The notes beneath the pieces were generated by a model, which worked only from the letters and a program-made list of their open reading frames with translations, had not been told where the DNA came from and did no database searches. This document shows, piece after piece, positions 2,669-19,513 of a stretch of DNA of 24,000 nt. The translations under genes were made by a program, and so were the position numbers. Origin of the DNA: Betaproteobacteria bacterium (GTDB lineage Bacteria > Pseudomonadota > Gammaproteobacteria > Burkholderiales > Burkholderiaceae_F); assembly GCA_005882215.1 (NCBI GenBank), contig VBCK01000116.1, forward strand, positions 114,678 to 138,677, given 5' to 3'. Each line of letters starts with the position of its first letter. The stretch's first letter is position 1.

Positions 2669-3845
2669 CTTCGTCGAGGCGGCGCGGCGGCGGCGCTTCG
2701 ACTGGTACGCCGGTGTTCCATGCTCATACCTGTCGCCATTCATCAACTATGCGCTGCAGGACCCGTCGCTGCGCTATTTGTCCATGGCCAATGAAGGCGA
2801 TGCGGTTGCGTTGATCGCGGGAGTTGCACTCGCGGGCGCCGGCGGCTTGCCCTTTGGGCGCGGCATCTCGATGATGCAGAACTCCGGGCTCGGCAATGCC
2901 GTCAGCCCGCTGACCTCCCTGACTTGGACCTTCCGCCTTCCCCAGCTGCTGATCGTTACCTGGCGTGGTCAGCCGGGTGTTCCTGACGAGCCCCAGCATT
3001 CCCTGATGGGTGCAATTACTCCGGCCATCCTTCGGGCCATGGAGATTCCTTGGGAATTGTTTCCGAGCGAAGTCGATGCGATCGGGCCGGCGCTGGATCG
3101 CGCCACGGCGCATATGGATGACAGTGGCCTGCCGTACGCTCTCCTGATGCAGAAGGGCACCGTCACCCCGTATCCGGTCAAGCCCGGGGCTTTCGCCGCC
3201 CCGGTGCGGCGGTCGGCAGCGCCAGCGGCTGTACTCATGCCTCACCGCGTTGCGCCGGAGGCGAGGCCGTCAAGACATGATGCCTTGCGCGTGGTCGTGG
3301 ACCGTTCGCCCGTCGCGACGAGCGTCGTGTTGGCGTCGACTGGATTTTGCGGGCGCGAACTGTATTCCGTCAACGATCGTCCAAATCACCTCTACATGGT
3401 CGGCTCTATGGGCTGCGTCGTGCCGTTGGCGCTCGGATTGGCTCTGGCTCGCCCGGATCTGCGGGTGATTGCACTGGATGGCGACGGTGCAGCATTGATG
3501 CGGATGGGGGCGTTCGGCAGCGTAGGCGCGTATGGCCCACCGAATCTGCTGCATCTGTTATTGGACAACGGAGTGCACGAATCGACCGGCGGCCAGGCAA
3601 CGGTGTCTCCCCTCGTTTCGTTTGCCGAAGTGGCTGCGGCCTGCGGCTATGCCTCGGCGCTCGAAACGGATGATCTGGCGCAAGTGGCTGCATGGCTGGA
3701 TGCTCCGCCGCTCGATGGATCAAGGTTCGCCCGCTTGCTGACGCGCGCGGCTCGGTCTGACGACCTGCCGCGTCCGTCCATAAGACCCGTCGAGGTCAAG
3801 ACGCGCTTGATGCAACACTTCGCCCCTGCCGCCGGCATCCGGTGA
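2652..3845 (+). CDS. ppd: Phosphonopyruvate decarboxylase (ThDP-dependent)
   Basis: ORF 2532..3845 is trimmed to the ATG at 2652 ([27 protein letters not shown]), which matches the family N-terminus. A ThDP-binding motif is present (GDGAALM...[14 protein letters not shown]). The start overlaps the pepM 3' end by 17 nt. The gene sits directly after pepM, as in characterised AEP clusters. Confidence 0.9.
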
Positions 3846-4921
3846 TGCTCCTGCTCAATCCCGGGCCCGTCACGCTGACGGAACGTGTGCGCCGAAGTCT
3901 GACGCAACCGGATTTGTGTCATCGCGAAGGCGAGTTTTTTGACTTGCAGGATGAAGCCCGCGAGCGGCTTTTGGCGACTTATGCGCTTGACCCGGTCGAA
4001 TGGAGTGCCGTGTTGATGACGGCGTCCGGTACCGGAGCGGTTGAAAGCATGCTGGCGGCCCTGGTGCCTGAGTCGGGTCGTTTGCTGGTTGTCGAAAACG
4101 GCGTGTATGGCGAGCGGATCGCTGAAATTTGTGCGCAGTACCGGCTTGCGTACGCTCGAACGGCTGGCCCCTGGATGAAGCCGCTCGACCTCGATGCAAT
4201 CCGCTCGTACCTCGATGTGCCGAGCGGGAAGGCACGATTCACGCACATGGCCGTCGTGCACCATGAGACCACGACGGGAAGGCTCAATGACCTGAGGCCG
4301 CTGGGCCAGCTGTGCCGGGCGCACGGAATGAACTTGCTCGTGGACGGCGTCAGCAGTTTCGGCGCTGAAGCGCTCGATTTTACCGACAGCAGCCTGTTGG
4401 CAGTGGCGGCCACTGCGAACAAATGTTTGCATGGAGTGCCAGGCGCCTCGTTTGTCATCGTCCGGCGCAGTGCCCTTGCTCAGGCAACCCGGCGCACCTA
4501 TTACCTCGATCTTGGCCGCCTCTCGCGTCTGCAAGATCAGCGCGATACGCCATTCACGCCGGCAGTGCACGCATATTATGGTTTAGTCGAGGCCTTGCGC
4601 GAGTTCGCAGAGCAAGGTGGCCGCCTCGCGCGCTATCGACATTATGCGGCGCTGGCCGAGCAGGTACGCTCAGGGCTTGCAGCGTTAGGAGTCGAATCGG
4701 CACTCCCCGCTGGGCAGTGGTCGGTCGTTTTGCGCGCGTATCGCTTACCGCCCGGCCTCAGCTATGCCACGCTGCATGATGGCTTGAAGGCCGAAGGCTT
4801 CGTGATTTACGCGGGCCAGGGGGATTTGTCGCAGACATTGTTTCGTATCTCGACGATGGGCAATCTGACCTCGGCCGACATGGACCGGTTCCTGAAGTGC
4901 TTTAGCCGGCTGCTGCGGTGA
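3842..4921 (+). CDS. phnW: 2-aminoethylphosphonate:pyruvate aminotransferase (class V PLP aminotransferase)
   Basis: The N-terminus LLLNPGPVTLTERVRRSL and the PLP-lysine context ATANKCLHGVPG are typical of PhnW/AEP transaminases. The start is GTG 3842 or ATG 3845, and both overlap the ppd stop (GTGATG). It is the third step of the pepM-ppd-transaminase trio. Confidence 0.88.
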   Translation: MMLLLNPGPVTLTERVRRSLTQPDLCHREGEFFDLQDEARERLLATYALDPVEWSAVLMTASGTGAVESMLAALVPESGRLLVVENGVYGERIAEICAQYRLAYARTAGPWMKPLDLDAIRSYLDVPSGKARFTHMAVVHHETTTGRLNDLRPLGQLCRAHGMNLLVDGVSSFGAEALDFTDSSLLAVAATANKCLHGVPGASFVIVRRSALAQATRRTYYLDLGRLSRLQDQRDTPFTPAVHAYYGLVEALREFAEQGGRLARYRHYAALAEQVRSGLAALGVESALPAGQWSVVLRAYRLPPGLSYATLHDGLKAEGFVIYAGQGDLSQTLFRISTMGNLTSADMDRFLKCFSRLLR

Positions 4922-4988
4922 CGCGAGCCGTTCGCAACGGTGTCATCCGCTGCGGTCGGCGCGCACCATCACCGGAAGTGGCTGAGCG

Positions 4989-6332
4989 ATGCCCCGTGAT
5001 CTGACGCCTCGAGCCAAATGCCGCAGCGCGGCCGCTTTTTCGTTCGATCTATTCCGGGCTTATCTGGCCACGCTGGTGATGGCGGCCCCCTGCTGGTCGG
5101 AGCCCACGGGACCCGCCGCGGATGTGCACGGACCGGAGGCAAGCGGTGCGCAGCCTTCTGCGCCTTCCGCCGGCTTCTGGAAGTGGTTCGATCCGGAAAC
5201 CGCGCCGTTCCTTCCTGTTCCCGAGATCGCGACCAATCCAAACGGCGGCACGACGATTGGCATTCTTCCGGTCTGGCTGCGCACCGATGAACATCACGTC
5301 ATCCGTCGAATCATCGCGCCGGATTTTCTGCACAGTCCCTATTTCGGGTTTGGCTTCCATGCGCGCATGTATTCCTACCCCTCCCAGGACGAGCAGTGGT
5401 CCCTGCTGGCAGGGGCTAAGCAGCGAGTCGAACGCGAGTTCGACGCCGAGTACCAGAGCGGACGCTCGCGCAAGGAACGCTGGTCCTTTGCCGGCAGCCT
5501 GATTTACGACCGAGACGGGACGCCTCGCTTCTATGGAATCGGCAATGAATCGCCTCAAAGCGAGCAAACGAGCTTCACCGAGGAACAGAGCCTGGTGCAG
5601 GCGCAGATTGGTCTGAACCTCAGCAACGCCTGGCAGCTGCTTTACACGGGACGCGTGCGCATCGTCGATGTGCTACCGGGCACACTGCCGGGCATCCCTT
5701 CGCTCGAGAGTCGATTCGGAAGCATTGAGCTGGGCACCAGCCACGAAGCGCTCAATCGCCTGTCCATCGTCTATGACACCCGGAATGACTTGACGGTACC
5801 CAATCGAGGGACAAAATGGATTGCCTATGGGGGCGTTGCCAGTCGAGGGGGTGTGCTCAACGATTCTCTGTACAGTGAAGCGGGCATCGACGGCCGTGCC
5901 TTCTTGCCGATTGCACGCGAAACCATCCTGGTGGCACATCTGTCTTTGCGCTATTTGCCGACCGCGATTGACCCACCCTTTTGGGCGCTCAGCAGCCTCG
6001 GCGGAGCCCGAAGCGAAACAGGAGGCGAGCAGCCGTTGCGCGGTTTTGGCGCGGGCCGGTTTTACGATCGCAATTCCTTTTCCTCCAGCGTCGAGGTGCG
6101 ACAAAGGGCGTGGGAGTTCAACGCGGTCTCCACTCATGTCGAGTTGGAAGTGGCGCCATTCGTCGATGTCGGCCGGGTATTCGCGATGGGCGCGTCGCCC
6201 GTTGCACAGCTGCACAAGGTCGGCGGCCTGGCCTTCCGCGCAATCGCACGGCCTTTTGTCGTCGGCTACGTCGATATCGGCTTTGGCAGTGAGGGCCCGG
6301 CCGTGTTCAGCGGTATCTACTACCCGTTTTGA
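4989..6332 (+). CDS. Omp85/BamA-family (bacterial surface antigen) outer-membrane beta-barrel, no POTRA domains evident
   Basis: Barrel-family segments are present: YDTRNDLTVPNRG, LGGARSETGGEQPLRGFGAGRF and VAPFVDVGRVF. The C-terminus ends ...GIYYPF, an aromatic terminal residue typical of OMPs. The hydrophobic N-terminal region is not a textbook signal peptide, so the start is uncertain. Only ~70 aa precede the barrel-like region. Confidence 0.72.
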   Translation: MPRDLTPRAKCRSAAAFSFDLFRAYLATLVMAAPCWSEPTGPAADVHGPEASGAQPSAPSAGFWKWFDPETAPFLPVPEIATNPNGGTTIGILPVWLRTDEHHVIRRIIAPDFLHSPYFGFGFHARMYSYPSQDEQWSLLAGAKQRVEREFDAEYQSGRSRKERWSFAGSLIYDRDGTPRFYGIGNESPQSEQTSFTEEQSLVQAQIGLNLSNAWQLLYTGRVRIVDVLPGTLPGIPSLESRFGSIELGTSHEALNRLSIVYDTRNDLTVPNRGTKWIAYGGVASRGGVLNDSLYSEAGIDGRAFLPIARETILVAHLSLRYLPTAIDPPFWALSSLGGARSETGGEQPLRGFGAGRFYDRNSFSSSVEVRQRAWEFNAVSTHVELEVAPFVDVGRVFAMGASPVAQLHKVGGLAFRAIARPFVVGYVDIGFGSEGPAVFSGIYYPF

Positions 6333-6490
6333 TATGGCCGTTCGTGTCAAGAGGGGATAGAGTGAAGAACAATGCCAGTAGAATTAAAAACCCACAAAAA
6401 CAACCCCCACCCGGTGGCTGCTTCTGCCCGCGGCTACGACCGGGATCCCAAAGACCACTGTCCGAGATCTGACTCGCAACGATCAGAAAC

Positions 6491-7630
6491 ATGCCTGCAT
6501 TCGTCGCCCATGCCGGTGTGGCGCTGGCCGTCATCGCCGCTGCGTATTCGACCTGCGCCGCACTGCTGCTGTTCCGCTGTCGTGAGACCTTGACGGCTTC
6601 GGGCCCCGAGCGTCCAGCCGTGTCGATCCTGAAGCCACTGTGCGGCGCCGAGCCGCGCCTGCTGGATTGTCTGCGTTCGTTCGCACGCCAGGATTACCCG
6701 CACATGCAGATCGTGTTCGGCGTGCGCGAGGCGGCCGACCCGGCCGTCGAGGTCGTCCGGCAGCTGCAGCGCGAATTTCCCGCGCTGGATGCCGCGCTGG
6801 TCGTCGATCCCGGCGTGCACGGCGAGAACCTGAAGGCGAGCAACCTGATCAACATGCTGCCGCATGCGCGTCATTCGGTCCTGGTGATCTCGGACAGCGA
6901 TGTGCGGGTCGCGCCGGGTTACCTCGAGGCGACGGTCGCGGCGCTGGCGCCGGCGCAGGTCGGCGCGGTGACCTGCCTGTACCGGGGGCGCGCCGGAACC
7001 GGGCTGTGGTCGCGGGTGGCGACGCTGTTCATCAACGACTGGTACTTCCCGGCGGTGCTGATCTCACTGGCGCTAGGCGACCGCTCGTTCGCCTCGGGCG
7101 TCACGATCGCCCTGCGCCGTCAGACGCTGGAGGCGATCGGGGGCTTGCAGGTGACAGCGGACCACGTGGCGGACGACTGGCTGATCGGCGAGCGGGTAAG
7201 GCGGCTTGGACTGAAAACCGTTCTGAGCCCGGTCGTGGTCCAGACCGAAGTGGCGGACGAGGGTTTTCGCGCTCACGCGCATCGCGAGCTGCGCTGGATG
7301 CGAACGATCCGCGCGGTGGCCCCGCTCGGCTACGCATTCATGGGCTTTTCGATCTTTCTGCCGATCGCGCTGCTTGGCGTGCTGCTCGCCTGGCCTTCTC
7401 CGTGGGCCTTGGGGCTGGGCATTTTGGCCCTCGTAAACCGGGTAGGTATTCACTGGGTGCAGCGGCGCCGCGGCGCAGCGAGACTGGGGTACGATTGGAT
7501 CCTGATCCCGCCCCGCGACGGCCTGCTGGTGGCGGTGTGGGTCGCTGGATTCCTGGGCCGGGGCATCACTTGGCGGGGCCGGCGGTATCGTGTGCGCGGC
7601 GGCGGAGCCTTGAGGCTGCTCGGCGGCTGA
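6491..7630 (+). CDS. hpnI: Hopanoid-associated family-2 glycosyltransferase HpnI (ceramide-glucosyltransferase-like)
   Basis: An N-terminal TM helix is followed by VSILKPLCGAEPRLLDCLRSFARQDYPHMQIVFGV and ISDSDV (DxD-like). C-terminal TM segments follow. It lies immediately upstream of hpnJ/K/L homologues, which supports the specific call. Confidence 0.85.
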   Translation: MPAFVAHAGVALAVIAAAYSTCAALLLFRCRETLTASGPERPAVSILKPLCGAEPRLLDCLRSFARQDYPHMQIVFGVREAADPAVEVVRQLQREFPALDAALVVDPGVHGENLKASNLINMLPHARHSVLVISDSDVRVAPGYLEATVAALAPAQVGAVTCLYRGRAGTGLWSRVATLFINDWYFPAVLISLALGDRSFASGVTIALRRQTLEAIGGLQVTADHVADDWLIGERVRRLGLKTVLSPVVVQTEVADEGFRAHAHRELRWMRTIRAVAPLGYAFMGFSIFLPIALLGVLLAWPSPWALGLGILALVNRVGIHWVQRRRGAARLGYDWILIPPRDGLLVAVWVAGFLGRGITWRGRRYRVRGGGALRLLGG

Positions 7631-7681
7631 AGAAAAACCGATGGCCGGGCCATTCTGCCGGCCGCTGCTGGACTGAATCCG

Positions 7682-9109
7682 ATGGCACTGAAGACCGTAT
7701 TTCTGCACCCCCCCTCGTTCGACGGCTTCGACGGCGGCGCCGGGGCGCGCTATCAGGCCAAACGCGAGGTGCGCTCGTTCTGGTTTCCGACCTGGCTTGC
7801 CCAGCCGGCCGCGCTGGTGCCCGACAGCGTGCTGATCGACGCGCCAACCGACGGGCTGTCACTCGAGGACGTGATGCCGCGTGTGAAGGATGCGGACCTG
7901 GTGATCATGCACACCAGCTCGCCGTCGTTCGCCAGCGATGCGAGGGTCGCCGAGCAGCTGAAGGCCGCCAATCCGCAGATGATGATCGGCCTGGTGGGCG
8001 CCAAGGTGGCGGTCGATCCGGACGGCTCGCTCGAGACCGCGCCCGCCGTGGACTTCGTGTGTCGCGAGGAGTTCGACTACACCTGCCTGGAGGTGTCCGA
8101 GGGCAAGCCGCTCGGGCAGATCGCCGGACTGTGCTATCGCGGCGCCGACGGCAAGCTGATCCATACGCCGCCGCGTGCCCCGATCGAGGACATGGACGCG
8201 CTGCCGTGGGTGACGCCGGTGTACCGGCGCGATCTGAAAGTCGAGAACTACTTCATCGGCTACCTGAAGCATCCCTACGTGTCGTTCTACACCGGCCGCG
8301 GATGCAAGTCGCGTTGCACGTTCTGCCTGTGGCCGCAGACGGTCGGCGGCCATCGCTACCGGGTGCGCAGCCCCGCCAGCGTGATCGAGGAGGTCGCCTG
8401 GATCCAGAAAAACATGCCGCAGGTGCGCGAGATCTTTTTCGACGACGACACCTTCACCGACCTGCTTCCCCGCGCCGAGGAGATCGCGCGCGGCCTGGGC
8501 AAGCTGGGCGTGACCTGGTCGTGCAACGCCAAGGCCAATGTTCCTTACGACACGCTGAAAGTGATGCGCGACAACGGACTGCGGCTGCTGTTGGTCGGCT
8601 ACGAAACCGGGTCAGACCAGATCCTTCGCAACATCAAGAAGGGAATGCGCACGGATTTTGCGCGCCGCTTCACGCGCGATTGCCGCGAGCTGGGCATCAC
8701 GATTCACGGCACTTTCATCCTGGGTCTGCCGGGCGAGACGCGCGAGACGATCGAGCAGACGATCCGCTTCGCCAAGGAGATCAATCCGCACACGATCCAG
8801 GTCTCGCTGGCCGCCCCGTATCCGGGTACCGAGCTGTACCGGGATGCGGTCGCCAACGGGTGGCTCAGCAGCCCGGATCCTTCGCAACTGGTCGATTCGT
8901 CCGGCACGCAGTTGATCCCGCTGAGCTACCCGCATCTGAAGGCCGACGAGATCTACCACGCGCTGGAGCGCTTCTACAAGAGCTTCTATTTCCGGCCCGG
9001 CAAGATCATCGAACTGGTCGCCGAGATGTCCACCAGCTGGGAGATGACGCAACGCCGCCTGCGCGAGGGGGTGGAGTTCATGCGCTTCCTGCACCGCCGC
9101 GCCGTCTGA
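7682..9109 (+). CDS. hpnJ: Hopanoid-associated B12-binding radical SAM protein HpnJ
   Basis: The N-terminus is MALKTVFLHPPSFDGFDGGAGARYQAKREVRSFWFPTWLA. The radical-SAM cluster motif is CKSRCTFC (CX3CX2C). At 475 aa the length fits the family, and the hpnI/K/L context agrees. Confidence 0.88.
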   Translation: MALKTVFLHPPSFDGFDGGAGARYQAKREVRSFWFPTWLAQPAALVPDSVLIDAPTDGLSLEDVMPRVKDADLVIMHTSSPSFASDARVAEQLKAANPQMMIGLVGAKVAVDPDGSLETAPAVDFVCREEFDYTCLEVSEGKPLGQIAGLCYRGADGKLIHTPPRAPIEDMDALPWVTPVYRRDLKVENYFIGYLKHPYVSFYTGRGCKSRCTFCLWPQTVGGHRYRVRSPASVIEEVAWIQKNMPQVREIFFDDDTFTDLLPRAEEIARGLGKLGVTWSCNAKANVPYDTLKVMRDNGLRLLLVGYETGSDQILRNIKKGMRTDFARRFTRDCRELGITIHGTFILGLPGETRETIEQTIRFAKEINPHTIQVSLAAPYPGTELYRDAVANGWLSSPDPSQLVDSSGTQLIPLSYPHLKADEIYHALERFYKSFYFRPGKIIELVAEMSTSWEMTQRRLREGVEFMRFLHRRAV

Positions 9110-9185
9110 CTCTGACTGGCGTATAAGTGCGCGGGGCTCGATCGCCCCTCGCCCGCGCAGCGGGACAGGGGGCGGAGGCGGGGTT

Positions 9186-9238
9186 GCGCGAAGCACTGCT
9201 TCGCGCCGCCGGAGCCGGCGCGCCTTGCAAGGCGCGCC
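9186..9238. repeat. Two adjacent perfect GC-rich palindromes/hairpins in the hpnJ-hpnK spacer
   Basis: 9186-9206 is GCGCGAAGCA-C-TGCTTCGCGC (10-nt arms). 9217-9238 is GGCGCGCCTTGCAAGGCGCGCC, a 22-nt perfect palindrome. I verified both by hand reverse-complementing. A weaker GGGGC-N6-GCCCC hairpin lies at 9133-9148. No T-tract follows any of them. Confidence 0.7.
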
Positions 9239-9254
9239 GTGGGCGGGGGTAAAG

Positions 9255-10151
9255 GTGGCGGCCACGCGGCACCTGATCATCACCGCCGACGATTTCGGCC
9301 TGGACCTGGCGATCAATGAGGCGGTCGAGCAGGCCTACACCGGAGGCGTGCTGACGGCTGCCAGCTTGATGGTGGGACAGCCGGCCGCTGGCGACGCGGT
9401 CGAGCGCGCGCGACGCCTTCCGGGTTTGCGAATCGGTCTGCACGTGACGCTGACCGGCGCGCGCCCGCTGCTGGCGCCGCAGCAGCTTCCCGACCTGGTC
9501 GATGCTGCCGGCCGCTTGCCCGCGGACCTGGCCGGACTCGGCTGGCGGTTGGCGGCAAGTCCGCGGGCGCGCCACCAGGCCGAGCAGGAGATCGGTGCGC
9601 AATTTCAGGCGTTCGCCAACGCCGGGCTGGCGCTCGATCACGTCAACGCGCATCAGCACTACCACCTGCATCCGTTCGTGCTGGACCGGATCCTGAGCAT
9701 CGGCCGCGGTTTCGGCATGCGCGCGGTGCGCGTGCCATTCGAACCGCTGTGGCTGGCGCGCGCGGTCCCGGCCAGCGCCTCCCGTGCGGGGCGGGTGTCG
9801 GCGCTCGGCTGGGCGCTGGGCACGGGCTGGATGCGGCGCCGGCTGCTTCGCGCGGGGCTGGCCTGCAACGATGTGCTGTTCGGGCTGCGCTGCAGCGGGC
9901 GTCTGGATGAGGCGACGCTGTGCGACGCGCTGGAACGGCTGCGGCCGGGAATTGCCGAGGTGTACTTGCACCCCGCGACACGCTGCGGTCCGCGCGAACA
10001 GTCGGCCGGCGTCGGGCCGCACGCGAGCGAGGAACTCGAGGCCTTGATGAGTCCGCGGGTGCGGCAACGGCTGCAGGCGCTGAACGCCTCGGCGGGCGGT
10101 TTCTCGGACATTCCGGGCGAAGCGCCCGCGCTGCGCGGAGCGGCGGCGTGA
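9255..10151 (+). CDS. hpnK: YdjC-family carbohydrate deacetylase, hopanoid-associated HpnK
   Basis: HLIITADDFGLDLAINEAVEQAYTGGVLTAASLMV is the YdjC N-terminal signature. I prefer the GTG at 9255 (preceded by GGGGG at 9244-9248) over the track's TTG at 9225. The TTG lies inside a 22-bp perfect palindrome. The start is therefore uncertain by ~30 nt. The stop overlaps the hpnL start (GTGA at 10148-10151). Confidence 0.8.
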   Translation: MAATRHLIITADDFGLDLAINEAVEQAYTGGVLTAASLMVGQPAAGDAVERARRLPGLRIGLHVTLTGARPLLAPQQLPDLVDAAGRLPADLAGLGWRLAASPRARHQAEQEIGAQFQAFANAGLALDHVNAHQHYHLHPFVLDRILSIGRGFGMRAVRVPFEPLWLARAVPASASRAGRVSALGWALGTGWMRRRLLRAGLACNDVLFGLRCSGRLDEATLCDALERLRPGIAEVYLHPATRCGPREQSAGVGPHASEELEALMSPRVRQRLQALNASAGGFSDIPGEAPALRGAAA

Positions 10152-11149
10152 AACGCATCGCCTATGTGCTCGGCCTGGCCGGCCTGGCCGCGGCCATCGC
10201 GCTGGTTGCGCGCGCTGGCTGGCATGCGGTACTGGATGCCCTTGCGGCCGCTGGCTTGCCGTTGCTGTGGCTGGTGCCGCTGCGCGTGATCCCGATCGCG
10301 TTGGATGCGATGGGGTGGCGCGTGCTGCTCGCGCCGCGCGACGTGCACCATCGCGCCCGCTGGCCGGTGCTGGTGGCAACGGCGATGGTGCGCGAGGCGG
10401 TCAATCGCCTGTTGCCGGTCGCCGGGGTCGGCGGCGAGCTGGTCGGGATCCGGATCCTGGTTCGCCGCGGGCTGGAACCGGCGCCGGTGACGTCGAGCGT
10501 GATCGCCGAGGTGGTGCTGACATTGCTGAGCCTGGTGCTGTTCGCCGCGCTTGGCCTCGCGCTGCTGGGGGTGTCGACCGGGGGAGCGGGCTCGCTCGAC
10601 TCGATCATCATCAGCGTTTTACTGGCCTTGCCGCTTCCGCTGGCTGGCCTGTGGCTGATCAGCGAAGGACGCCTCGTCGCCTGGCTGCGGCGCCTTGCTT
10701 ACCTGGTGACCGGCAGCACCGGCCTGGCACCGCCGTGGCTGCAGTCGATGCCGGCGTTCGAGACAGAATTGTCGGCGCTGGCGCGGCGCCGGGGCCGGCT
10801 GGTGCTGACCATGTTGTTCCAGTTGGCCGCAATGACGGCGGGCGCCTCGGAAGTGTGGCTTGCGCTAAGACTGCTCGGCCACCCGGTCGGTTTCGAGACC
10901 GCGCTGATCATCGAAAGCGTCGTGCTGTTCGTGCGCAACCTGGCCTTCGCGGTTCCGGCCGCGCTTGGCGCACAGGAGGCCGGCATCGTGCTGATCTGCG
11001 CGGCCGTCGGTCTGGATCAGGAGGTGGCGATCGGCCTGGCCCTGGCCAAGCGGATGCGCGAAGTGCTGTTCGGCCTGCCGGCGCTGCTGGGCTGGAATCT
11101 GTGGGAAAGCATGCAAGCTTCGCCGGCGGTCGCCGGGCGTTCGAAGTAA
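10148..11149 (+). CDS. hpnL: Hopanoid-associated polytopic membrane protein HpnL (UPF0104 / lysyl-PG-synthase TM-region, flippase-like family)
   Basis: ORF 9920..11149 is trimmed to the GTG at 10148 (VKRIAYVLGLAGLAAAIALVARAGW...). The protein has multiple hydrophobic helices, and the LPVAGVGGELVGIRIL segment is typical of the family. It is translationally coupled to hpnK. Confidence 0.78.
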   Translation: MKRIAYVLGLAGLAAAIALVARAGWHAVLDALAAAGLPLLWLVPLRVIPIALDAMGWRVLLAPRDVHHRARWPVLVATAMVREAVNRLLPVAGVGGELVGIRILVRRGLEPAPVTSSVIAEVVLTLLSLVLFAALGLALLGVSTGGAGSLDSIIISVLLALPLPLAGLWLISEGRLVAWLRRLAYLVTGSTGLAPPWLQSMPAFETELSALARRRGRLVLTMLFQLAAMTAGASEVWLALRLLGHPVGFETALIIESVVLFVRNLAFAVPAALGAQEAGIVLICAAVGLDQEVAIGLALAKRMREVLFGLPALLGWNLWESMQASPAVAGRSK

Positions 11150-11165: not shown

Positions 11166-11933
11166 TCAAGGCCGAACAGCTGGGGATTCCAGCGCCATGC
11201 CCCGCGCGCGCCACATCAGGAACAGTTCGAGGTTCACGAGTTCCGGTGCTCCGTAGTCGTAGGGCTCGGAGCGCACGCCGCTGATGCAGGCGCGCAGCCT
11301 GCGCTGCAGCGAGCCCAGCCCCTGCCACTCAAGCCGATAGAGCGGATATCCGGTCGGATGGGCTTGGGGAATCAGGCTGCCCGCCAGGTGCTTGCCCCAG
11401 TTGTCGTCGTGGCACTGGTTGCAGGCGAGATTGAGCTGGCCGCGGCGGCGCTGGAATTGCTCGCGGCCGGCGGCCAGAAACGGCTCGCTGCGTGGGTCAG
11501 CGCCGATTTCGATCCGCAGGCCGCGCGATTGCTGCGCGACGTAAGCGGTGATCGCCAGCAGTTGCCGGCTTTCGAACGCGAATGCAGAGGCGCGCTGTCG
11601 AATCGTGCGACACAGGTTGATGCGCTGCTCCAGGTCGAGGGGGCGTCCGGCCGCGACCTCGAACGCGGGGTAACGGGCGGCGACCCCCTTCATGCTGACG
11701 CCGGCGTCACCGTGGCAGTCCGCGCAAGCGCGCGCACCCGGGTTGGGTCGCTCGTTCCAAAGGCCCTTGCCCTCCATCACCCAGAGCATCGCCGGATTGG
11801 CGGCGTCATCGTCCTGGATAGCCCGCGTCTCCGGCCTCATCAATTCGTAGCCCGAATGGCGCTCGGACGGCGGGATCTCGCCGGCGATGGCGGCAAGGGC
11901 AAAGGCGAATACAGAGAAGCCGGCGAGCCGCAT
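11166..11933 (-). CDS. soxA: Dihaem c-type cytochrome SoxA
   Basis: ORF 11166..11990 is trimmed to the ATG at 11933 (MRLAGFSVFAFALAAIAG signal peptide), which overlaps the soxZ stop (TAATG). There are two CxxCH motifs (CADCH, CNQCH) and the conserved distal Cys context RLRACISGVRSEPY. The C-terminus LELFLMWRARGMALESPAVRP is SoxA-like. Confidence 0.88.
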   Translation of the reverse strand: MRLAGFSVFAFALAAIAGEIPPSERHSGYELMRPETRAIQDDDAANPAMLWVMEGKGLWNERPNPGARACADCHGDAGVSMKGVAARYPAFEVAAGRPLDLEQRINLCRTIRQRASAFAFESRQLLAITAYVAQQSRGLRIEIGADPRSEPFLAAGREQFQRRRGQLNLACNQCHDDNWGKHLAGSLIPQAHPTGYPLYRLEWQGLGSLQRRLRACISGVRSEPYDYGAPELVNLELFLMWRARGMALESPAVRP

Positions 11934-12253
11934 TATTCGACTCTGATCGCCACCGACTCGGTCGCCGAAAAGCCGTTGTCCCCCGTCCATGTGAAAACGA
12001 GGGTGCCGCTTTCGGTCGCGATCGTATTGAAGGCGAAGTACGGGTTGGCCGCTATGGCCGGGTGGATCTCGGCGCGGAACACTTCCTCGCCGTTATAGGA
12101 GCAGACGAACAGGCGCAGGATATCGCGGGGAATGACCGCACCCAGCGAGGTACGGCGATAGCCGGTTTCCATCACGTGCGAGATCAGCGTCTTGATCTGA
12201 ATGATCTCGCCGCGCCTGGCGCTGGGGGGAACGTTGATCAGAGCGCTGGCCAT
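11933..12253 (-). CDS. soxZ: SoxZ-type sulfur-carrier complex subunit
   Basis: The 106-aa protein reads RGEIIQIKTLISHVMETGYRRTSLGAVIPRDILRLFVCSYNGEEVFRAEIHPAIAANPYFAF, matching the SoxZ signature. Its start overlaps the stop of the upstream SoxY-like gene (TAATG at 12251-12255). Confidence 0.88.
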   Translation of the reverse strand: MASALINVPPSARRGEIIQIKTLISHVMETGYRRTSLGAVIPRDILRLFVCSYNGEEVFRAEIHPAIAANPYFAFNTIATESGTLVFTWTGDNGFSATESVAIRVE

Positions 12254-12705
12254 TACGACGACGGCTCCGTGCAGGCTGCGAGGGTAACCACGGATTCCGC
12301 CGATCCGGACCAGAATGAGCCGTCGCTCATCTGGCAGACGGCGACGACCGTCTGCGAGTCGGCGAGCCGGATGCGGGTCGACACGCTCGCACGGCCGGCG
12401 CGCGGGCCAAGGTGCAATGACGCCACATACGGCTGCGGATTCTTTTCCACGAACACGTGGACCGCCTTCACGTGGTCAGCCACCGTCATCGGGCTGTCCA
12501 CGCGGATAGTCAGGGGGACCGAATTCCCGTTCTCCACCAGCGGCGGCAGGTCGAGTGTCACCCGGCCAGCGGTGACGCGGGCCGTGCCCGTGAGCTGCAG
12601 GATCGCCTCCTTCACCTCGGCGGGAGTCGCGCGAACTGCTGCCGCTCCGAGTCCAAATGCCGCGCCGATCGCGCCGCCAACGGCCAGAAAGTCGCGCCGC
12701 TTCAC
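12253..12705 (-). CDS. SoxY-related carrier protein with a non-canonical C-terminal arm (ends ...VVTLAACTEPSS instead of ...GGCGG)
   Basis: A twin-arginine signal is present (MKRRDFLAVGGAIGAAFGLGAAAVRA). The SoxY core segments are LDLPPLVENGNSVPLTIRV and STRIRLADSQTVVAVCQMSDGSFW. I hand-translated the C-terminus from nt 12279->12253: GCA GCC TGC ACG GAG CCG TCG TCG TAA = AACTEPSS*. The GTG start at 12705 abuts the soxX stop. Confidence 0.85.
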   Translation of the reverse strand: MKRRDFLAVGGAIGAAFGLGAAAVRATPAEVKEAILQLTGTARVTAGRVTLDLPPLVENGNSVPLTIRVDSPMTVADHVKAVHVFVEKNPQPYVASLHLGPRAGRASVSTRIRLADSQTVVAVCQMSDGSFWSGSAESVVTLAACTEPSS

Positions 12706-13116
12706 TCAGTCACGCAGGGTCGCCAGAAACGCGACCACGTCCTCGATCTGTTGCGGGGTGAGCAGCGTCCGCCCTCGGAACGCCGGAGCAACGCGCCAGA
12801 GTCCTTCGGACCTGCCATAGGCCGGCATGATCGTGGCCGGGTTCAGGCGCATCGGATCGATGATGCGCAGGCGAAGCTGTGCCTCGGTCCAGCGCGTGCC
12901 CGCACCCCGCAGATCCGGTGCGAGGTCGCCTTGTGACGGCTCCTCCGGAAACGGGCCGCTATGGCAGAGCAGGCACAACCCGGTCTGGCGATCGGCGACG
13001 ATCGCACGCCCGCGAGCAGGGTCGCCCCTTTGCCCGGTGAGCGGATTGGGCAGGGACTCCTGCGCGACGTTGCAGGCCGAGAAGCCCGCCAGCAGCACCG
13101 CGAGAACGGCCTTCAC
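12706..13116 (-). CDS. soxX: Monohaem c-type cytochrome SoxX
   Basis: There is a signal peptide (MKAVLAVLLAGFSAC..., possibly a weak lipobox) and a single CLLCH haem motif. The segments GDLAPDLRG, TIMPAYG and the C-terminal LLTPQQIEDVVAFLATLRD match the SoxX pattern. The GTG start overlaps the stop of the upstream flavoprotein gene (GTGA at 13113-13116). Confidence 0.82.
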   Translation of the reverse strand: MKAVLAVLLAGFSACNVAQESLPNPLTGQRGDPARGRAIVADRQTGLCLLCHSGPFPEEPSQGDLAPDLRGAGTRWTEAQLRLRIIDPMRLNPATIMPAYGRSEGLWRVAPAFRGRTLLTPQQIEDVVAFLATLRD

Positions 13117-14372
13117 TCGAAGACCTCCGCGGTCAGCGTGCGGAAGGCTGCCTCGGCATTGCTGGCTTCGAGAGCGCGCGCGGCGCCCGGCGAGTCGGCA
13201 GCACCCGCAGCGCCCGATTCGGCCACCTCTGCAAACTCCCCGCCCTCCGGACGATAGATCCCCGCCATCGAAATGCCGTAATCCGGCGCGACCAGGCTGT
13301 AGCAGGCGTTGATCAGCCTGGGTGAGGCGGGCTCACGACCGGCCAGCAGCGCCGCCACCGCCAACGCGCAGCTCTTGGCCTCGGTGTTGGCGCCGAAGGC
13401 CGATTTCGGCATCGCGCCGGTGATCGCCGCATCGCCGATGACATGGATGTTCGGCTGCAGCCTCGATTCGAAGGTCACCGGGTCGATCGGGCACCAGCCG
13501 CTGCGGTCGGCCACACCGGCGGCCCCGGCGATCCGGCCCGCCTTCTGCGGCGCGATCACGTTGGCGACGGCGGCGCGGTACCGATCGAAATCGGTGACCA
13601 GCGTGCGAGTCGTCGGCTCGACCGAGACGACCCCGCCGCCGCGCGAAAGAGGCACCCACTCGATCAGGCCGGGGTAGAGCTCGCTCCAGGCGCTGAGGAA
13701 GAGCTGCTGCTTCGGGAACTTGTCCTTCGCATCCAGCACGATCACTTTCGAGCGTGGCTTGTGCGCCTTCAAGTAATGGGCGATCAGGCTGGCCCGCTCG
13801 TAGGGCCCCGGCGGGCAGCGATACGGACCGGCCGGCGCCGAGATGACCACCAGTGCGCCGTCTTGCATGGCCTGCAGTTGTCGGCGCAGCAGCAGGGTTT
13901 GCTCGCCCGCCTGCCAAGCGTGCGGCATCTGCTGGGCGGCCGCCTCGTCGTAGCCCGGCAACGCGTCCCAACGGATGTCGATGCCGGGCGCGAGAACCAG
14001 CCGGTCGTAGCCCAGGCGGGTGCCGTCCGACAGCGCGACGCGGCGGGCGCGGGGGTCGATCGCGGTTGCGGCGAGCGGCGCAAGCGCCACCCCGTCGGCT
14101 CGCAAGGCGGCGTAGGTAAACTGCTGCCGGTCCATCTCGCGCAGACCGGCGATCACCGCATTGCTCATCGGACAGGCGTGAAAGACCGCGTTTTGCTCGA
14201 CCAGCGTCACGGCGATCCGCGGGTCGGCTTTCTTTAGAGCTCGGGCGCAACTCGCGCCTGCGAAGCCGCCCCCGACGACCGTCACCCGCCGGGCCGATGC
14301 CTGCCCGTGCAAGACCTGTGCCGGAAGCGCCGCGGTTGCGGCCGCGGCGCCCAGGAAGACCCTGCGCTCCAC
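13113..14372 (-). CDS. Flavocytochrome-c sulfide dehydrogenase-type flavoprotein (FccB/SoxF-like), Tat-exported
   Basis: The Tat motif is MERRVFLGAAAATAAL, and the FAD dinucleotide fold is VTVVGGGFAGAS. Three cysteine contexts of FCSD flavoproteins are retained: FHACPMSN (FAD-linking Cys position), GPYRCPPGPYERAS and INACYSLV (redox disulfide positions). The GTG start at 14372 directly abuts the stop of the Mo-subunit gene (TGAGTG). Confidence 0.85.
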   Translation of the reverse strand: MERRVFLGAAAATAALPAQVLHGQASARRVTVVGGGFAGASCARALKKADPRIAVTLVEQNAVFHACPMSNAVIAGLREMDRQQFTYAALRADGVALAPLAATAIDPRARRVALSDGTRLGYDRLVLAPGIDIRWDALPGYDEAAAQQMPHAWQAGEQTLLLRRQLQAMQDGALVVISAPAGPYRCPPGPYERASLIAHYLKAHKPRSKVIVLDAKDKFPKQQLFLSAWSELYPGLIEWVPLSRGGGVVSVEPTTRTLVTDFDRYRAAVANVIAPQKAGRIAGAAGVADRSGWCPIDPVTFESRLQPNIHVIGDAAITGAMPKSAFGANTEAKSCALAVAALLAGREPASPRLINACYSLVAPDYGISMAGIYRPEGGEFAEVAESGAAGAADSPGAARALEASNAEAAFRTLTAEVFE

Positions 14373-16595
14373 TCAGACCAGTTCGAAGCCGCTATTTTTC
14401 AGCGGGAACGAGCGGATGCGCTTTCCCGTCGCCCGGCATAGCGCGTTCAGGACGGCCGGCGCCGCCACGGCGATCGTGGGCTCCCCGACGCCGCCCCAGA
14501 AGCCGCCAGAGGGCATGATGATCGATTCGACCTTCGGCATCTGACTGATCCGCATCGAGTCGTAGGTGTTGAAGTTTTCCTGCTCGATGCGCCCATCCTT
14601 GACGGTGCACTGCTCCATGAACAGAGCCGACAACCCATAGACGAACGAGCCGGCAACCTGGCGATCGATCTGCGCCGGGTTAACGGCATAGCCGGGGTCG
14701 GTGCCACCGACGATCCGGTGGATCTTGACCTTGCTGCCACCGGTCACTGAGACCTCCGCGCAGGCCGCCACGTAGCTGCCGAACGCTCTGAAGTGGGCGA
14801 TTCCGCGGTGCACTCCGGCGGCTGCCGGCTTGCCCCAGCCTCCCTTTTCGGCCACGGCATTCAGGAGCGCAAGCGACTTCGGATGCGCTGCCATCAACTT
14901 GCGCCGGAACTCCAGCGCATCCTGCCCGGCCGCTTCCGCCAACTCATCCATGAAGCATTCCAGGAAGATGGCGTTCTGGTTGACGTTGACGCCGCGCCAG
15001 AATCCGGGCGGCACATGCGGATTTCGCATGGCATGGTCGATCAACAGGTTCGGGATCGTGTATTCCAGCGAATGCTCGCCGGTGGGCCAGTAGCCTTGAA
15101 ACGTCAGCGGGTCCTTGCCCTTGTCCAGCCCCTCCGGGCGGGCCGAGGCGAGGATCGACTGCCCGGAGAGGCGGATCCGAAGGCCGGTCAGGTTGCCGCC
15201 GGCATCGAGCGCCCCGATCAGCCGAGCCTGCATCACCGGATGGTACTTGCCGTGCAGCATGTCCTCCTCGCGGGACCACAGCAGCTTCACCGGTGTTCCG
15301 GGCATCAGCTTGGCGATCGCGACCGCCTGGCGCACATAGTCGGTGAACCCGCGTCGGCCGAAGCCACCGCCCAAGAAGGTCTTGTGGACGTCGCATTGAG
15401 CCACCGGCAGCCCCGAGGCCTCGGCGGTCGCCGCCAGCGCGGCCTCGCCGTTCTGGGTCGGGCACCAGACCTCGCAACGATCGCTCGTGTAGAGCGCGGT
15501 CGCGTTCATCGGCTCCATCGTGGCGTGGTTCTGGTAGGGGTAGCTGTAGACCGCCTCGACTTTCTTCGCCGCCGACTCGATGGCGGCCTTCACGTCCCCG
15601 GCCTCGTTGTGCACGAACGCCTGTTCCGCATCCAGGCCGGCAGCCAGCGTCTGCGCGATCGTGGCGCTCGAGACGGTGGCGTTCTCCCCACCATCCCATT
15701 CGATCGCGACCGCATCGAGCGCCGTCTTGGCATGCCACCAGGTGTCGGCGACGACGGCGATCGCGCTATCGCCGACGCGCACGACTCTTTTCACGCCCGG
15801 CATGGCCTCGGATTTGGTCGCGTCATAGGTCTTCACCTTGCCGCCGAACACCGGGCAGTCCTTGATGGCGGCGTTCAGCATCCCGGGCAGGTGCAGGTCG
15901 GCGCCGTAGACCAGCTTGCCGGTTACCTTGTCCAGCGTGTCCAGCCGCTTCAGCGGCTTGCCGACGATTTGCCATTGCGCCGGGTCCTTGAGCGGCACGT
16001 CCTTCGGCGCTTCGAGCTTTGCCGCCGCATCCGCCACCTGGCCGTAGGTCGTGCGTCGCTTGGACGGGGCGTGGGTAATGACGCCCTTTGCCACGCTGCA
16101 CTCGGCCACCGGCACTTTCCAATCGTCGGCCGCGGCCTGAACCAGCATCATGCGTGCGGCAGCGCCGCCCTTCCGTACGTACTCCTGCGAAGCGCGGATG
16201 CCGCGGCTGCCGGCGGTAAAGTAATCGCCCCACACGCGCTTGCGCGCCAGGTTCTCCCCGGGAGTCGGAAATTCGGTCGTGACCCTGGCCCAGTCGCACT
16301 CGAGCTCCTCGGCGACGAGCTGGGCCAGGCCGGTCATCGTTCCCTGCCCCATTTCCGATCGCGCGATCCGGATCACGACTGTGTCGTCGGGGCGAATTAC
16401 GACCCACGCGTTGACTTCAGCGCCGGCCTCCACGGCGAAAGACTGCTTCGGTCCGCCGAAAGGGATCCTGAATCCGAGCGCGAGCCCGCCCCCGACCGCG
16501 GCGGTGCGGACCAGGAACGAGCGCCTATCCATCTTCGCAGCGTCGATCATCATCGCAAGTCCTTCCTCGGCCTCATTCTCACGCTCATCTGTCAT
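14373..16595 (-). CDS. Xanthine-dehydrogenase-family molybdopterin-binding subunit (IorB / aldehyde oxidoreductase large-subunit type), Tat-exported
   Basis: ORF 14373..16976 is trimmed to the ATG at 16595 (MTDERENE...[20 protein letters not shown], a Tat signal). That start overlaps the [2Fe-2S] subunit stop (ATGA). The 5' 381 nt of the track ORF is an out-of-frame read through the upstream gene. The remaining ~740 aa include [19 protein letters not shown] and GGGFGRRG, typical of Mo-hydroxylase large subunits. An alternative start is [13 protein letters not shown], about 14 codons downstream. Confidence 0.85.
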
Positions 16596-17041
16596 GACCT
16601 GGCGGCAGCGTGGATGGCCTCGCGCACCTGTTGATAGGTGCCGCAGCGGCAGATGTTGGTAATGGCGGCGTCGATGTCGGCGTCGGTGGGATTGGGCTTT
16701 TCCTTCAGCAGCGCCGCGACGGCCATGATCATGCCGGACTGGCAGTAGCCGCACTGGGGGACGTCGTGCTCGAGCCAGGCCTGTTGTACACGGCTCAGCT
16801 TGCCCTCGACTGCCAGCCCCTCGATGGTGGTGATCTTCTTGCCCTGCGCTGCCTCGACGGGCATCACGCAGGAACGCACCGCCCTGCCGTCGATGTGCAC
16901 CGTGCAGGCCCCGCATTGCGCGATCCCGCAGCCGTACTTGGTCCCAGTGAGGCCGACCTGCTCCCGGATCGCCCACAGCAGCGGGGTCCCCGGGTCCACA
17001 TCGACGTCGACCGTCTTGCCATTGATCGTAAGGCGTGCCAT
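16592..17041 (-). CDS. (2Fe-2S)-binding small subunit of a Mo-hydroxylase (IorA type)
   Basis: The 149-aa protein carries both cluster motifs: [11 protein letters not shown] (plant-ferredoxin-like) and [10 protein letters not shown]...CRCGTY. It is the first gene of the minus-strand operon and is preceded by a 158-nt divergent intergenic region. Confidence 0.9.
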
Positions 17042-17199
17042 CTGTGTCTCCCGGTCATCCGGCGTCGGGTTCCAAATATCCTACGCTCACACGGCTGTTC
17101 ACACCCCGGTTCCGGCTCAGGCGATCACGTGTCGCGTTCGGGGTCTATATTGAGGGCCTTCCGAAGCGTTGTGCCGCAGCCCGGGAGCGCATTCGACGG
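17042..17199. promoter_or_regulatory. Divergent intergenic region expected to hold promoters for the Mo/Sox-like operon (-) and the beta-eliminating lyase gene (+)
   Basis: This is the only non-coding DNA upstream of both divergent start codons. It contains a direct TCACAC...TCACAC repeat, a CACGTG-centred imperfect palindrome (GATCACGTGTC) and a TATATT hexamer. None of these is verified as functional. Confidence 0.35.
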
Positions 17200-18606
<1,407 letters not shown>

Positions 18607-19157
18607 CTAGCGCCGCACGCCAGCCAGCACGACGAGGCCGGCAGGAAGCGCCTCTGCGCCGAACGAGGCGCGCTCACGCGCATCGACGCCTTCACCTCGC
18701 AGAATGCGCAAGGCCTCGTCGACGTCGAACGTCACGTTGCGGTGGTGCTCGTCGCTGCGCCGCCAGTTTCCGCCATCACGCCGGAAAACCGTGATCGCCC
18801 GATCGAAGCGTGTCCGGTCGACACGACGGCATCGGACTCGCGCAAGGCCCCATTCGATCCCGGCGGCAGGCCGGTGGGCAGCCGGACTAGCTCGAAATCA
18901 GCGCCTCGTTCGTACTCGCGCGCCAGCTCGATCATCGCCGGCGACGCATCGACACCGCGCACCGCAAATCCGGCGGCACACAGCTCTCGGGCCAGCAGAC
19001 CGCTGCCGCAGCCGACGTCCGGCACGCGGGCGCCGGCGCCCATGCCACTGTCGCGCAACAGCTGGACGATGCCAGGTCCGGTCCGTTCGACATGGTGAGA
19101 ATAGCCGGCGTGGTGAACCCACGCGAGGTCGTCCTGGTAGTAAGCCTGCCTTGCCAT
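18607..19157 (-). pseudogene. Class I SAM-dependent methyltransferase, frameshifted and probably internally deleted
   Basis: Frame A (19157 -> ~18812) reads [22 protein letters not shown]...[36 protein letters not shown]...DAVVSTGH. It then runs into nonsense and stops at 18732. A second frame, from ~18811 to the TAG at 18607-18609, reads [67 protein letters not shown]. That is a plausible C-terminus for this methyltransferase family. The segment normally lying between the two parts appears to be missing. Confidence 0.6.
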
Positions 19158-19336
19158 CGTGGCAACATACCACGCAGGTCCGCAACGCTTTCGAGTCTGG
19201 GCGGCCACCGCCGGACCAGGAAAAGAGCCAGCGCCAGCAGCGAGCCGCCCGGCAGCAGCAGTTCCAGCATCAGATAAGGTCCCAGCTGCCTTCCGACCCG
19301 ACGCAGCGTCGCTACAAGCCCGGTGATGACATCCAT
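18932..19336 (-). CDS. Hypothetical small membrane protein ORF (only the first ~45 codons look protein-like)
   Basis: The ATG at 19334-19336 is preceded by a strong AAGGAG, 8 nt upstream. The N-terminus [43 protein letters not shown] contains one clear TM helix. The frame then stays open for ~90 more codons, out of frame across the methyltransferase 5' region. The true 3' end is therefore unknown. Confidence 0.3.
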
Positions 19337-19513
19337 TTGGCGTGCTCCTTTCAATACATAGTCGTTTGGGCCGCCTCGAAATCGACAGTGGATTGCCACA
19401 ATCGCGGAGGTGGTGATCGGCACGGGTGCGGCCGATACACTTGCGCCAAAATGCACTCACCACCAATCGGGTTTCGGGCCGCGTGCGGCTCGAACTACGG
19501 CCGCGAGGTCCAG

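Follow-up and report, generated by a model that had tools for sequence, protein, structure and literature searches.

What does a set of sox genes do when it is joined to a molybdenum (Mo) enzyme of the xanthine oxidase (XO) family, with neither soxB nor soxCD beside it? The question is raised by a locus in the window, which here means the whole 24,000-nucleotide stretch analysed (contig VBCK01000116.1 of a Betaproteobacteria bacterium, assembly GCA_005882215.1, positions 114,678 to 138,677). On the minus strand of the window, seven open reading frames (ORFs), all seven intact, occupy positions 11166-17041 in the order iorA-iorB-fccB-soxX-soxY*-soxZ-soxA. The best explanation of their sequences is that they encode a self-contained, horizontally mobile carrier-protein oxidation unit, predicted to be periplasmic, which would be a paralogue of the Sox system and not a fragment of it. 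The features are as follows, with lengths in amino acids (aa).

16592 to 17041, minus strand: iorA, small subunit with two [2Fe-2S] clusters; 149 aa, without signal peptide; Pfam Fer2 and Fer2_2.
14373 to 16595, minus strand: iorB, molybdopterin-binding large subunit; 740 aa from the ATG at 16595; twin-arginine signal; MoCoBD_1 and MoCoBD_2.
13113 to 14372, minus strand: fccB, a soxF-like flavoprotein of the flavocytochrome c sulfide dehydrogenase (FCSD) type; 419 aa; twin-arginine signal; FCSD_central and FCSD-flav_bind.
12706 to 13116, minus strand: soxX, monohaem cytochrome c; 136 aa; TIGR04485.
12253 to 12705, minus strand: soxY*, variant sulfur-carrier protein; 150 aa; twin-arginine signal; C-terminus ...VVTLAACTEPSS; TIGR04487.
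12265 to 12282, minus strand: carrier-arm codons of soxY*, L142-A-A-C145-T-E147, with the conserved Cys145.
11933 to 12253, minus strand: soxZ, carrier partner; 106 aa; without signal peptide; TIGR04490.
11166 to 11933, minus strand: soxA, dihaem cytochrome c (type 1); 255 aa; TIGR04484.
17042 to 17199, no strand assigned: divergent intergenic region between iorA and a beta-eliminating lyase gene, the presumed operon promoter region; defined by the gene calls on contig L081, which is 99-100% identical to the window.

The gene order recurs far beyond chance. Diverse SoxY* homologues were aligned and one genome per species was scanned; the 80 best loci were kept, and four more were fetched separately. 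A metagenome scan was seeded with IorB, and loci with at least 2.6 kb downstream were counted. Related loci from these scans are given L-numbers. Of the SoxY*-seeded genome loci, 60 have 4.9 kb or more upstream of soxY*, and in all 60 of them iorB lies upstream in the same orientation and order. Conversely, soxY* lies downstream in 41 of 43 IorB-seeded metagenome loci. One exception (L105) is a tandem iorAB array ended by the end of the contig, and the other (L121) has no sox genes. An earlier note on this DNA, made from its sequence alone, had considered that the adjacency might be peculiar to this genome. That case is clearly rejected, since the order from iorA and iorB through to soxA recurs across genera and phyla.

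The hosts are diverse. They include Burkholderiaceae and other Betaproteobacteria, many Methylomirabilota/Rokubacteria (some on megabase contigs), Xanthobacteraceae, Microvirga, Methylobacteriaceae, Luteimonas (Gammaproteobacteria), and one Candidatus Acidoferrum metagenome-assembled genome (Acidobacteriota). A Gemmatimonadales contig (L049) carries the soxX-soxY*-soxZ-soxA part; it begins inside soxX, leaving the upstream genes out of view. In the cultured Neorhizobium galegae VafX2 (LZK73_24395-24425) and Methylobacterium sp. NMS14P (LOK46_RS32150-32185), the cluster is found on a chromid or plasmid, and its parts are labelled individually by PGAP. The Mo-subunit gene of the Neorhizobium record is unlisted in the PLSDB table, where the other parts of the cluster are labelled. 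A 107-kb soil-metagenome contig (L085) encodes an IorB that is 100% identical to that of the window.

Clustering of the flanking ORFs in the first 82 related loci yielded no conserved flanking family, whether regulator, transporter, soxB or maturation factor. The module is thus self-contained. The recurring flank families of the same 82 loci included no second Sox set. On L081 and L082 none of the called neighbours has a Sox-related Pfam family, and on L083 and L084 PGAP names neither SoxB nor SoxCD. The window itself lacks soxB and soxCD, as had been noted before. For SoxB and SoxCD, the negative result extends to the window and to the neighbouring genes, called or annotated, of L081-L084; it was obtained without a SoxB profile, and the source genome beyond the window was not searched. 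Linkage, the lack of conserved flanks, and a separate SoxY family (described below) all support the distinct module that the earlier note had proposed.

The composition of the cluster varies in two respects. First, iorB and fccB are separated in most related loci by an extra gene, whose product is an FccA-like monohaem cytochrome c with a CSGCH motif and a length of about 95 aa (for instance, L004 8007-8330 and L084 6850-7143). In the window no such gene was found: the iorB stop abuts the fccB start, and a tblastn search with an FccA-like query matches only the haem domain of SoxA. The closest Burkholderiaceae relatives also have no fccA, which leaves the flavoprotein without a dedicated cytochrome, and a betaproteobacterial subset has neither fccA nor fccB. 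The usual cluster has eight genes, and the seven of the window are a lineage-specific reduction in which fccA was lost. The seven-gene set of the earlier note is therefore accurate for the window but does not describe the usual form.

Second, the number and position of the iorAB genes change. In some alphaproteobacterial loci, two or three iorAB pairs stand upstream of a single fccAB-soxXYZA set (L039 1-7834, L055 11-7839, L105 76-7964, L075, and L051). Identity to the IorB of the window is only about 50% for the pair next to fccA and 72-74% for the pairs upstream of it. Rearrangement is seen in two loci (L026 7277-12077 and L050 7183-19745), where soxY*Z* come directly after iorAB and a more distant soxX comes next; the identity of soxX and soxA to those of the window is only 47-52% in these loci. 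L050 then continues with a second SoxY variant that has an SACLD arm, soxZ, soxA, two pyrroloquinoline quinone (PQQ) dehydrogenases of the methanol/ethanol family (TIGR03075, 602 bits), a small cytochrome c, and a PQQ-associated beta-propeller protein. Over 45 complete loci, the pairwise distances of IorA/IorB correlate with those of SoxY/SoxZ at r 0.53-0.70 and with those of SoxX/SoxA at r 0.35-0.53. Because of these higher correlations and the order in L026 and L050, IorAB and SoxY*Z* appear, to a modest degree, to be the tightest pair. Since fccA and fccB are variably present and the copy number of iorAB varies, the invariable core consists of IorAB, SoxXA, and SoxY*Z*, with FccB, usually together with FccA, as a frequent accessory.

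The carrier departs from canonical SoxY. SoxY* scores 202.8 bits against TIGR04487 (“SoxY-related AACIE arm protein”; cut-off 172) over the full profile 1-146. Its score against the canonical SoxY model TIGR04488, 108.6 bits, is under the cut-off of 125. In place of the canonical GGCGG swinging arm, the C-terminus reads LAACTEPSS. Cys145 is invariant in 97 of 97 sequences, and the arm follows the motif [LIV][AGSP]AC[LTVIAS][ED], with family forms such as LAACLE, LAACTE, and LAACVE. An acidic residue stands two positions after the Cys and is Glu in all motifs but one. The tail extends three to seven residues past the Cys, compared with two in GGCGG. An AlphaFold model of SoxY* (predicted local distance difference test, pLDDT, of 66, which is moderate) gives a target-normalised template modelling score (TM-score) of 0.84 against Paracoccus SoxY, 2OXG_Y. 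Residues 143-149 have a pLDDT below 50, as expected for a flexible arm. The partner SoxZ scores 82.2 bits against TIGR04490 (cut-off 76) and matches 2OX5_Z with E 6.5e-22. These observations support SoxY* as a family separate from canonical SoxY, which would have kept the carrier function and changed its partner specificity. Two further cysteines were considered and rejected. A second, resolving cysteine in SoxY* (position 124) occurs in only 33 of 97 sequences, and Cys51 of SoxZ, a candidate module-specific partner cysteine, is also present in Paracoccus SoxZ.

The cytochromes look catalytically canonical. SoxX scores 79.3 bits against TIGR04485 (cut-off 61), and its CLLCH cysteines are conserved in 111 of 111 sequences. 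SoxA scores 214.6 bits against TIGR04484 (cut-off 110) and matches Rhodovulum SoxA, 1H31_A, with E 2e-44. It has the haem motifs CADCH and CNQCH, and its distal Cys216 in RLRACISG aligns with RFRGCIRD of 1H31_A; the haem-motif and distal cysteines are conserved in 109 of 110 sequences. Profiles, motifs, and conservation thus agree on a SoxXA with the Cys-ligated active-site haem of canonical Sox. SoxX, SoxZ, and SoxA all surpass the NCBI curated cut-offs for “true” Sox proteins.

The Mo enzyme has the two subunits expected of the XO family, a small one with two [2Fe-2S] clusters and a molybdopterin-binding large one with the Glu of the GEP motif. IorA contains PF00111 (Fer2) and PF01799 (Fer2_2), and its eight cluster cysteines are all kept in 95 of 95 orthologues. 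IorB contains PF02738 (MoCoBD_1, 117 bits) and PF20256 (MoCoBD_2, 103 bits). Its best solved relative is 8GY3_C, the large subunit of a Gluconobacter membrane aldehyde dehydrogenase, which it matches over the full length with E 8e-70. The GGGFGRR and GxGEP motifs align, GVGEP of the window standing opposite GLGEP. We take the Glu of this motif to be the catalytic base of the family. The operon contains no gene for a flavin adenine dinucleotide (FAD) subunit or for a multihaem cytochrome. IorA falls below every NCBIfam equivalog cut-off, and the equivalog matches of IorAB are all far under theirs (the best is 175.7 bits against 780). The name “IorAB” is used here for an architecture and not for a substrate. 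An active-site cysteine specific to this clade, which might exchange with the carrier arm, was sought and rejected, as no such Cys of IorB is invariant. Position 709, four residues past the catalytic Glu, is Cys in 77% of orthologues and Ala in the window.

FccB belongs with the flavoproteins of sulfide dehydrogenases. It contains PF21706 (FCSD_central, 156 bits) and PF09242 (FCSD-flav_bind, 65 bits), and it matches the solved structures 5N1T, 3VRD, and 1FCD with E 8e-135 to 1e-114. In the alignment with 5N1T_A (E 8e-135), the cysteines of CP(M/F)SN, RCPPGPYERA, and CYSLV are kept, and 91 of 91 sequences have both Cys186 and Cys357. FccB is thus a close relative of FCSD and SoxF with its catalytic cysteines kept. 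The difference from FCSD is that the gene for the cytochrome subunit is missing in the window and its closest relatives, and that fccAB is dispensable in the betaproteobacterial subset. Two candidate links between IorB and FccB were rejected. One was a fusion, called as a single 1,248-aa protein on L082 (5841-9587); there is a stop after iorB, with a separate small cytochrome gene in the gap, and the merged call is probably an artefact of a frameshifted long-read assembly. The other was in-frame read-through joining the two genes; in 14 loci the frame of fccB is already open at the end of iorB, a share close to the 1/3 that chance would give in high-GC DNA.

All of these proteins are predicted to act in the periplasm. 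Twin-arginine motifs are visible in IorB (MDRRSFLV), FccB (ERRVFL), and SoxY* (KRRDFL), and SoxX and SoxA have hydrophobic N-termini, so the export signals listed in the earlier note can be read directly in the sequence. No signal is seen in IorA and SoxZ, which would therefore need to travel with IorB and SoxY. Joint export of SoxZ with SoxY is known for SoxYZ. Each product would then have either an export signal of its own or an exported partner.

Set beside the canonical system of Paracoccus pantotrophus (soxXYZABCD), the module shares the SoxXA haem motifs with the distal Cys, the SoxYZ fold, a C-terminal Cys arm, a SoxF-type flavoprotein nearby, and, by prediction, the periplasmic location. 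It differs in its arm, AACTEPSS and not GGCGG. SoxB and SoxCD, the latter a Mo enzyme of the sulfite oxidase family, were not found, and an XO-family Mo enzyme is present instead.

A closer counterpart has been described. Starkeya novella has a second, smaller sox cluster, Snov_1975-1982, with an XO-family Mo enzyme (Snov_1975/1976) and without SoxB or SoxCD (Kappler and Nouwens 2013, PMC3797975). Its SoxA, Snov_1982, is a type 1 dihaem protein (PMC4003848). Like the window, this cluster combines a two-gene XO-family Mo enzyme, a SoxF-like flavoprotein, and SoxXYZA with a type 1 dihaem SoxA. The order of its locus tags fits iorA-iorB-fccA-fccB-soxX-Y-Z-A; it has a two-subunit flavocytochrome, whereas the window has no cytochrome subunit. 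The earlier note knew of no described system of this composition, which is contradicted by the S. novella cluster of 2013 with the same content (PMC3797975). It is also contradicted by the NCBI curated carrier model TIGR04487 and by the PGAP labels on parts of the cluster in Methylobacterium and Neorhizobium. The operon is a slightly reduced instance of a cluster type that a 2013 paper noted and NCBI has catalogued in part. A literature search for the function of the iorAB-sox module returned only the S. novella paper and a phylogeny note, and no function was assigned in the papers searched.

How might such a module work? The tentatively preferred answer, to which we give somewhat less than an even chance, is that SoxXA attaches a sulfur species to the AAC(T/L/V)E arm and that IorAB, standing in for SoxB and SoxCD, processes the adduct. 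In the first step, SoxXA, with its canonical active site kept, would oxidatively couple a sulfur nucleophile to Cys145 of SoxY*, releasing two electrons. The nucleophile would most likely be sulfide, polysulfide, or thiosulfate, and could be a thiol or thiocyanate. FccB, where present, would oxidise sulfide and might also supply this arm with sulfane sulfur. The replacement of GGCGG by AAC(T/L/V/I)E in the arm would have accompanied the loss of SoxB and SoxCD, and IorAB would thus be the enzyme that acts on the arm-bound adduct. IorAB would then insert oxygen derived from water and free the carrier, for example by the four-electron oxidation of a persulfide through an S-sulfinate to sulfite. 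Finally, the electrons would leave by way of the two [2Fe-2S] clusters of IorA, reach the c-type haems of SoxX, SoxA, or FccA, and enter the respiratory chain from there. Both the substrate and the molybdenum chemistry are guesses. The scheme draws indirect support from the linkage in both directions, the invariant arm Cys, the SoxY fold, and the intact catalytic motifs of SoxA, FccB, and IorB.

Several points weigh against this scheme, and its main weakness is chemical. The usual mechanism of the XO family requires a C-H carbon that is electrophilic and from which hydride passes to Mo=S, and no enzyme of the family is known to act on sulfur or on a protein-tethered substrate. The module contains no hydrolase to release the product from the arm. 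It is because the family attacks C-H carbons and no release hydrolase is present that the scheme is held so tentatively. IorB shows no clade-specific invariant Cys or other obvious adaptation, and its closest solved relative, 8GY3_C, is part of an aldehyde dehydrogenase. L121 (3738-6375), the one clear case that breaks the linkage of iorAB with sox, encodes an IorAB orthologue (71% and 82% identity) with no sox or fcc gene in the 5.6 kb downstream. The AACxE arm is a presumption for SoxY2 of S. novella and no more than a possibility for soxY2 of Bradyrhizobium diazoefficiens. A physiological anchor is also lacking. In S. novella, the one organism studied, expression of the second cluster was very low on glucose, methanol, and thiosulfate, that is, under all conditions tested; the cluster was not induced by thiosulfate, and its function was left open (PMC3797975).

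Other explanations place the Mo enzyme and the carrier in different relations. In the first, IorAB would be a periplasmic dehydrogenase of the ordinary kind, acting on a free aldehyde or N-heterocycle. Relatives with this two-subunit layout usually have a multihaem cytochrome c subunit of their own, which SoxX, SoxA, or FccA would replace here, while the sulfur reactions of SoxXA, SoxYZ*, and FccB ran in parallel under the same regulation. The aldehyde dehydrogenase of Gluconobacter, a three-subunit enzyme, has such a cytochrome c subunit. The Gluconobacter oxydans enzyme (8GY3) and IorAB-type enzymes share with the module a Mo subunit that aligns over its full length, a small subunit with two [2Fe-2S] clusters, the absence of an FAD subunit, and a twin-arginine signal on the large subunit. 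Identity to 8GY3 is only about 30%, and the operon of the window encodes no multihaem cytochrome c subunit; the nearby haem proteins are only SoxX and SoxA in the window, joined by FccA in relatives. An outlet through SoxX and SoxA would fit their being the only haem proteins that are always present, and two or three tandem iorAB pairs per fccAB-soxXYZA set look as if several dehydrogenases shared one outlet. Such an outlet gives no reason for the presence of SoxY*Z* with IorAB in 60 of 60 loci, for its invariant Cys, or for its staying adjacent to IorAB when soxX and soxA move or are replaced. The change in the arm sequence is likewise left unexplained, and SoxA keeps its catalytic distal Cys and has not decayed to a plain electron carrier. 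We consider this explanation unlikely.

In the second, the arm thiol would bind an aldehyde, for example formaldehyde, as a hemithioacetal for IorAB, and SoxXA would recycle or protect the thiol. There are parallels among other variant carriers. NCBIfam TIGR04557 is a “quinoprotein dehydrogenase-associated SoxYZ-like carrier”, and a 2024 study linked the variants SoxYZ-S2 and SoxYZ-S4 to PQQ alcohol, methanol (XoxF), and formate dehydrogenases (PMC11237559). These carriers resemble SoxY* in being SoxY-type proteins with an altered arm that are tied to a periplasmic dehydrogenase and not to SoxB. L050, where iorAB-soxY*Z*, the SACLD-arm carrier, and two PQQ dehydrogenases stand in one cluster, combines both kinds and lends weak support, and the nearest solved relative of IorB is after all an aldehyde dehydrogenase. 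SoxYZ-S2 and SoxYZ-S4 differ, however, in being SoxY-SoxZ fusions with PQQ, XoxF, or formate dehydrogenase partners and with no SoxXA reported nearby (PMC11237559). The module has SoxY and SoxZ as two proteins, invariably includes SoxXA, and has a Mo enzyme as the partner of the carrier. Among about 160 loci examined, only one has PQQ dehydrogenases near the module, and a sulfide dehydrogenase flavoprotein accompanies the module in most loci. SoxXA looks catalytically canonical for the formation of S-S bonds, and oxidation of aldehydes by the XO family needs no thiol. Aldehyde capture by the arm seems distinctly improbable.

In the third, the sox genes would be isoenzymes of the ordinary thiosulfate pathway, with SoxB and SoxCD supplied from elsewhere, and the Mo enzyme would be an unrelated, co-regulated passenger. 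SoxX, SoxZ, and SoxA pass the “true” Sox equivalog cut-offs, and S. novella and B. diazoefficiens also hold complete sox clusters (PMC3797975, PMC5748708). Moreover, a 2026 survey of genomes with complete clusters counted about 1,000-1,300 extra copies of soxA, soxX, soxY, and soxZ and only 65 extra copies of soxB, and left the extra copies outside the complete clusters unanalysed (PMC13500833). Against this, SoxY* is under the canonical cut-off and has a different arm, and a passenger would not persist in 60 of 60 tightly spaced loci across phyla. Analogy with two other bacteria also argues, indirectly, that the module is not a spare part for thiosulfate oxidation: of the two soxY genes of B. 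diazoefficiens only soxY1 is essential for this process, so that soxY2 does not replace it (PMC5748708), and the S. novella copy is not thiosulfate-induced (PMC3797975). Little weight is given to this explanation.

The last, that the Sox and Fcc proteins make a SoxY* persulfide to restore the labile Mo=S of exported IorAB, beyond the reach of cytoplasmic sulfurases, is very improbable: XO-family enzymes are indeed inactive without the sulfido ligand, which sulfide restores chemically, loci with several iorAB pairs do share a single Sox set, and no maturation gene of the XdhC/PaoD type is present among the conserved flank families or the called neighbours on L081 and L082, but five or six genes, two redox enzymes among them, are a heavy cost for repair, there is no precedent, other exported XO-family enzymes are matured in the cytoplasm before twin-arginine export, and no sequence feature points specifically to such a role.

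Loading by SoxXA followed by processing by IorAB can be stated in a bolder form. IorAB would be the first XO-family Mo enzyme to act on a protein-tethered substrate, and together with SoxXA it would oxidise sulfide, polysulfide, or organosulfur compounds without SoxB or SoxCD, widely among soil Methylomirabilota, Burkholderiales, and Alphaproteobacteria. This form is possible, though rather doubtful. If the module does work alone, it would add a pathway to the oxidative sulfur cycle of ordinary oxic soils and would extend XO-family chemistry to a protein-tethered, possibly sulfur, substrate. By analogy with the organisms above, the module apparently does not support thiosulfate oxidation. Because SoxX, SoxZ, and SoxA pass the models for “true” Sox proteins and yet belong to a separate module, surveys that count soxX, soxY, soxZ, and soxA as evidence of thiosulfate oxidation will overcall it. 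The module occurs in cultured, genetically tractable bacteria (Starkeya, Neorhizobium, and Methylobacterium), and with its breadth of conservation this makes it a worthwhile and tractable target.

The layout of the operon is compact. Neighbouring genes overlap or abut, with the junctions ATGA (16592-16595), TGAGTG (14370-14375), GTGA (13113-13116), TGAGTG (12703-12708), TAATG (12251-12255), and TAATG (11931-11935). All six strings are present where the earlier note had placed them, although the ATGA overlap between iorA and iorB is probably not a real start. Orthologues of IorB align only from about residue 14-16 of the 740-aa version. The first 14 codons of the annotated gene (16551-16595) are acidic, unconserved in orthologues, and without a good ribosome-binding site. 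A second ATG, at 16553, has GAGGAAGGA 6 nucleotides upstream, a much better ribosome-binding site than that of the ATG at 16595. Because of this site and the reach of the orthologue alignments, the real start of iorB is probably the ATG at 16553, 42 nucleotides downstream of 16595. The gap from the iorA stop to iorB would then be 38 nucleotides, which is tight but leaves no overlap.

Inside the operon, the minus strand shows no terminator-like site, and we infer that all seven genes are carried on a single transcript. In the presumed promoter region, 17042-17199, no match to the sigma-70 consensus was found. At the other end, the soxA stop (last base 11166) lies 16 base pairs from the stop of a convergent LPG_synthase_TM (hpnL-like) gene that ends at 11149; the coordinates agree with the earlier statement that nothing follows soxA.

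The convergent gene belongs to a plus-strand group at 890-11149. This group includes genes of the phosphonate biosynthesis type (a phosphoenolpyruvate mutase-nucleotidyltransferase fusion, a thiamine pyrophosphate enzyme, and a class V aminotransferase), an Omp85 protein, and a hopanoid-type set resembling hpnI/J/K/L (GT2, B12 radical S-adenosylmethionine, YdjC, and LPG_synthase_TM). Its content suggests a phosphonate-decorated envelope lipid or glycan. On the far side of the operon, a minus-strand ORF at 18732-19466 resembles a methyltransferase dependent on S-adenosylmethionine and lies between the lyase gene and a kbl-like aminotransferase gene. It may be a decaying gene, because on the near-identical L081 (3699-4099) it is called only as fragments of 91 and 42 aa.

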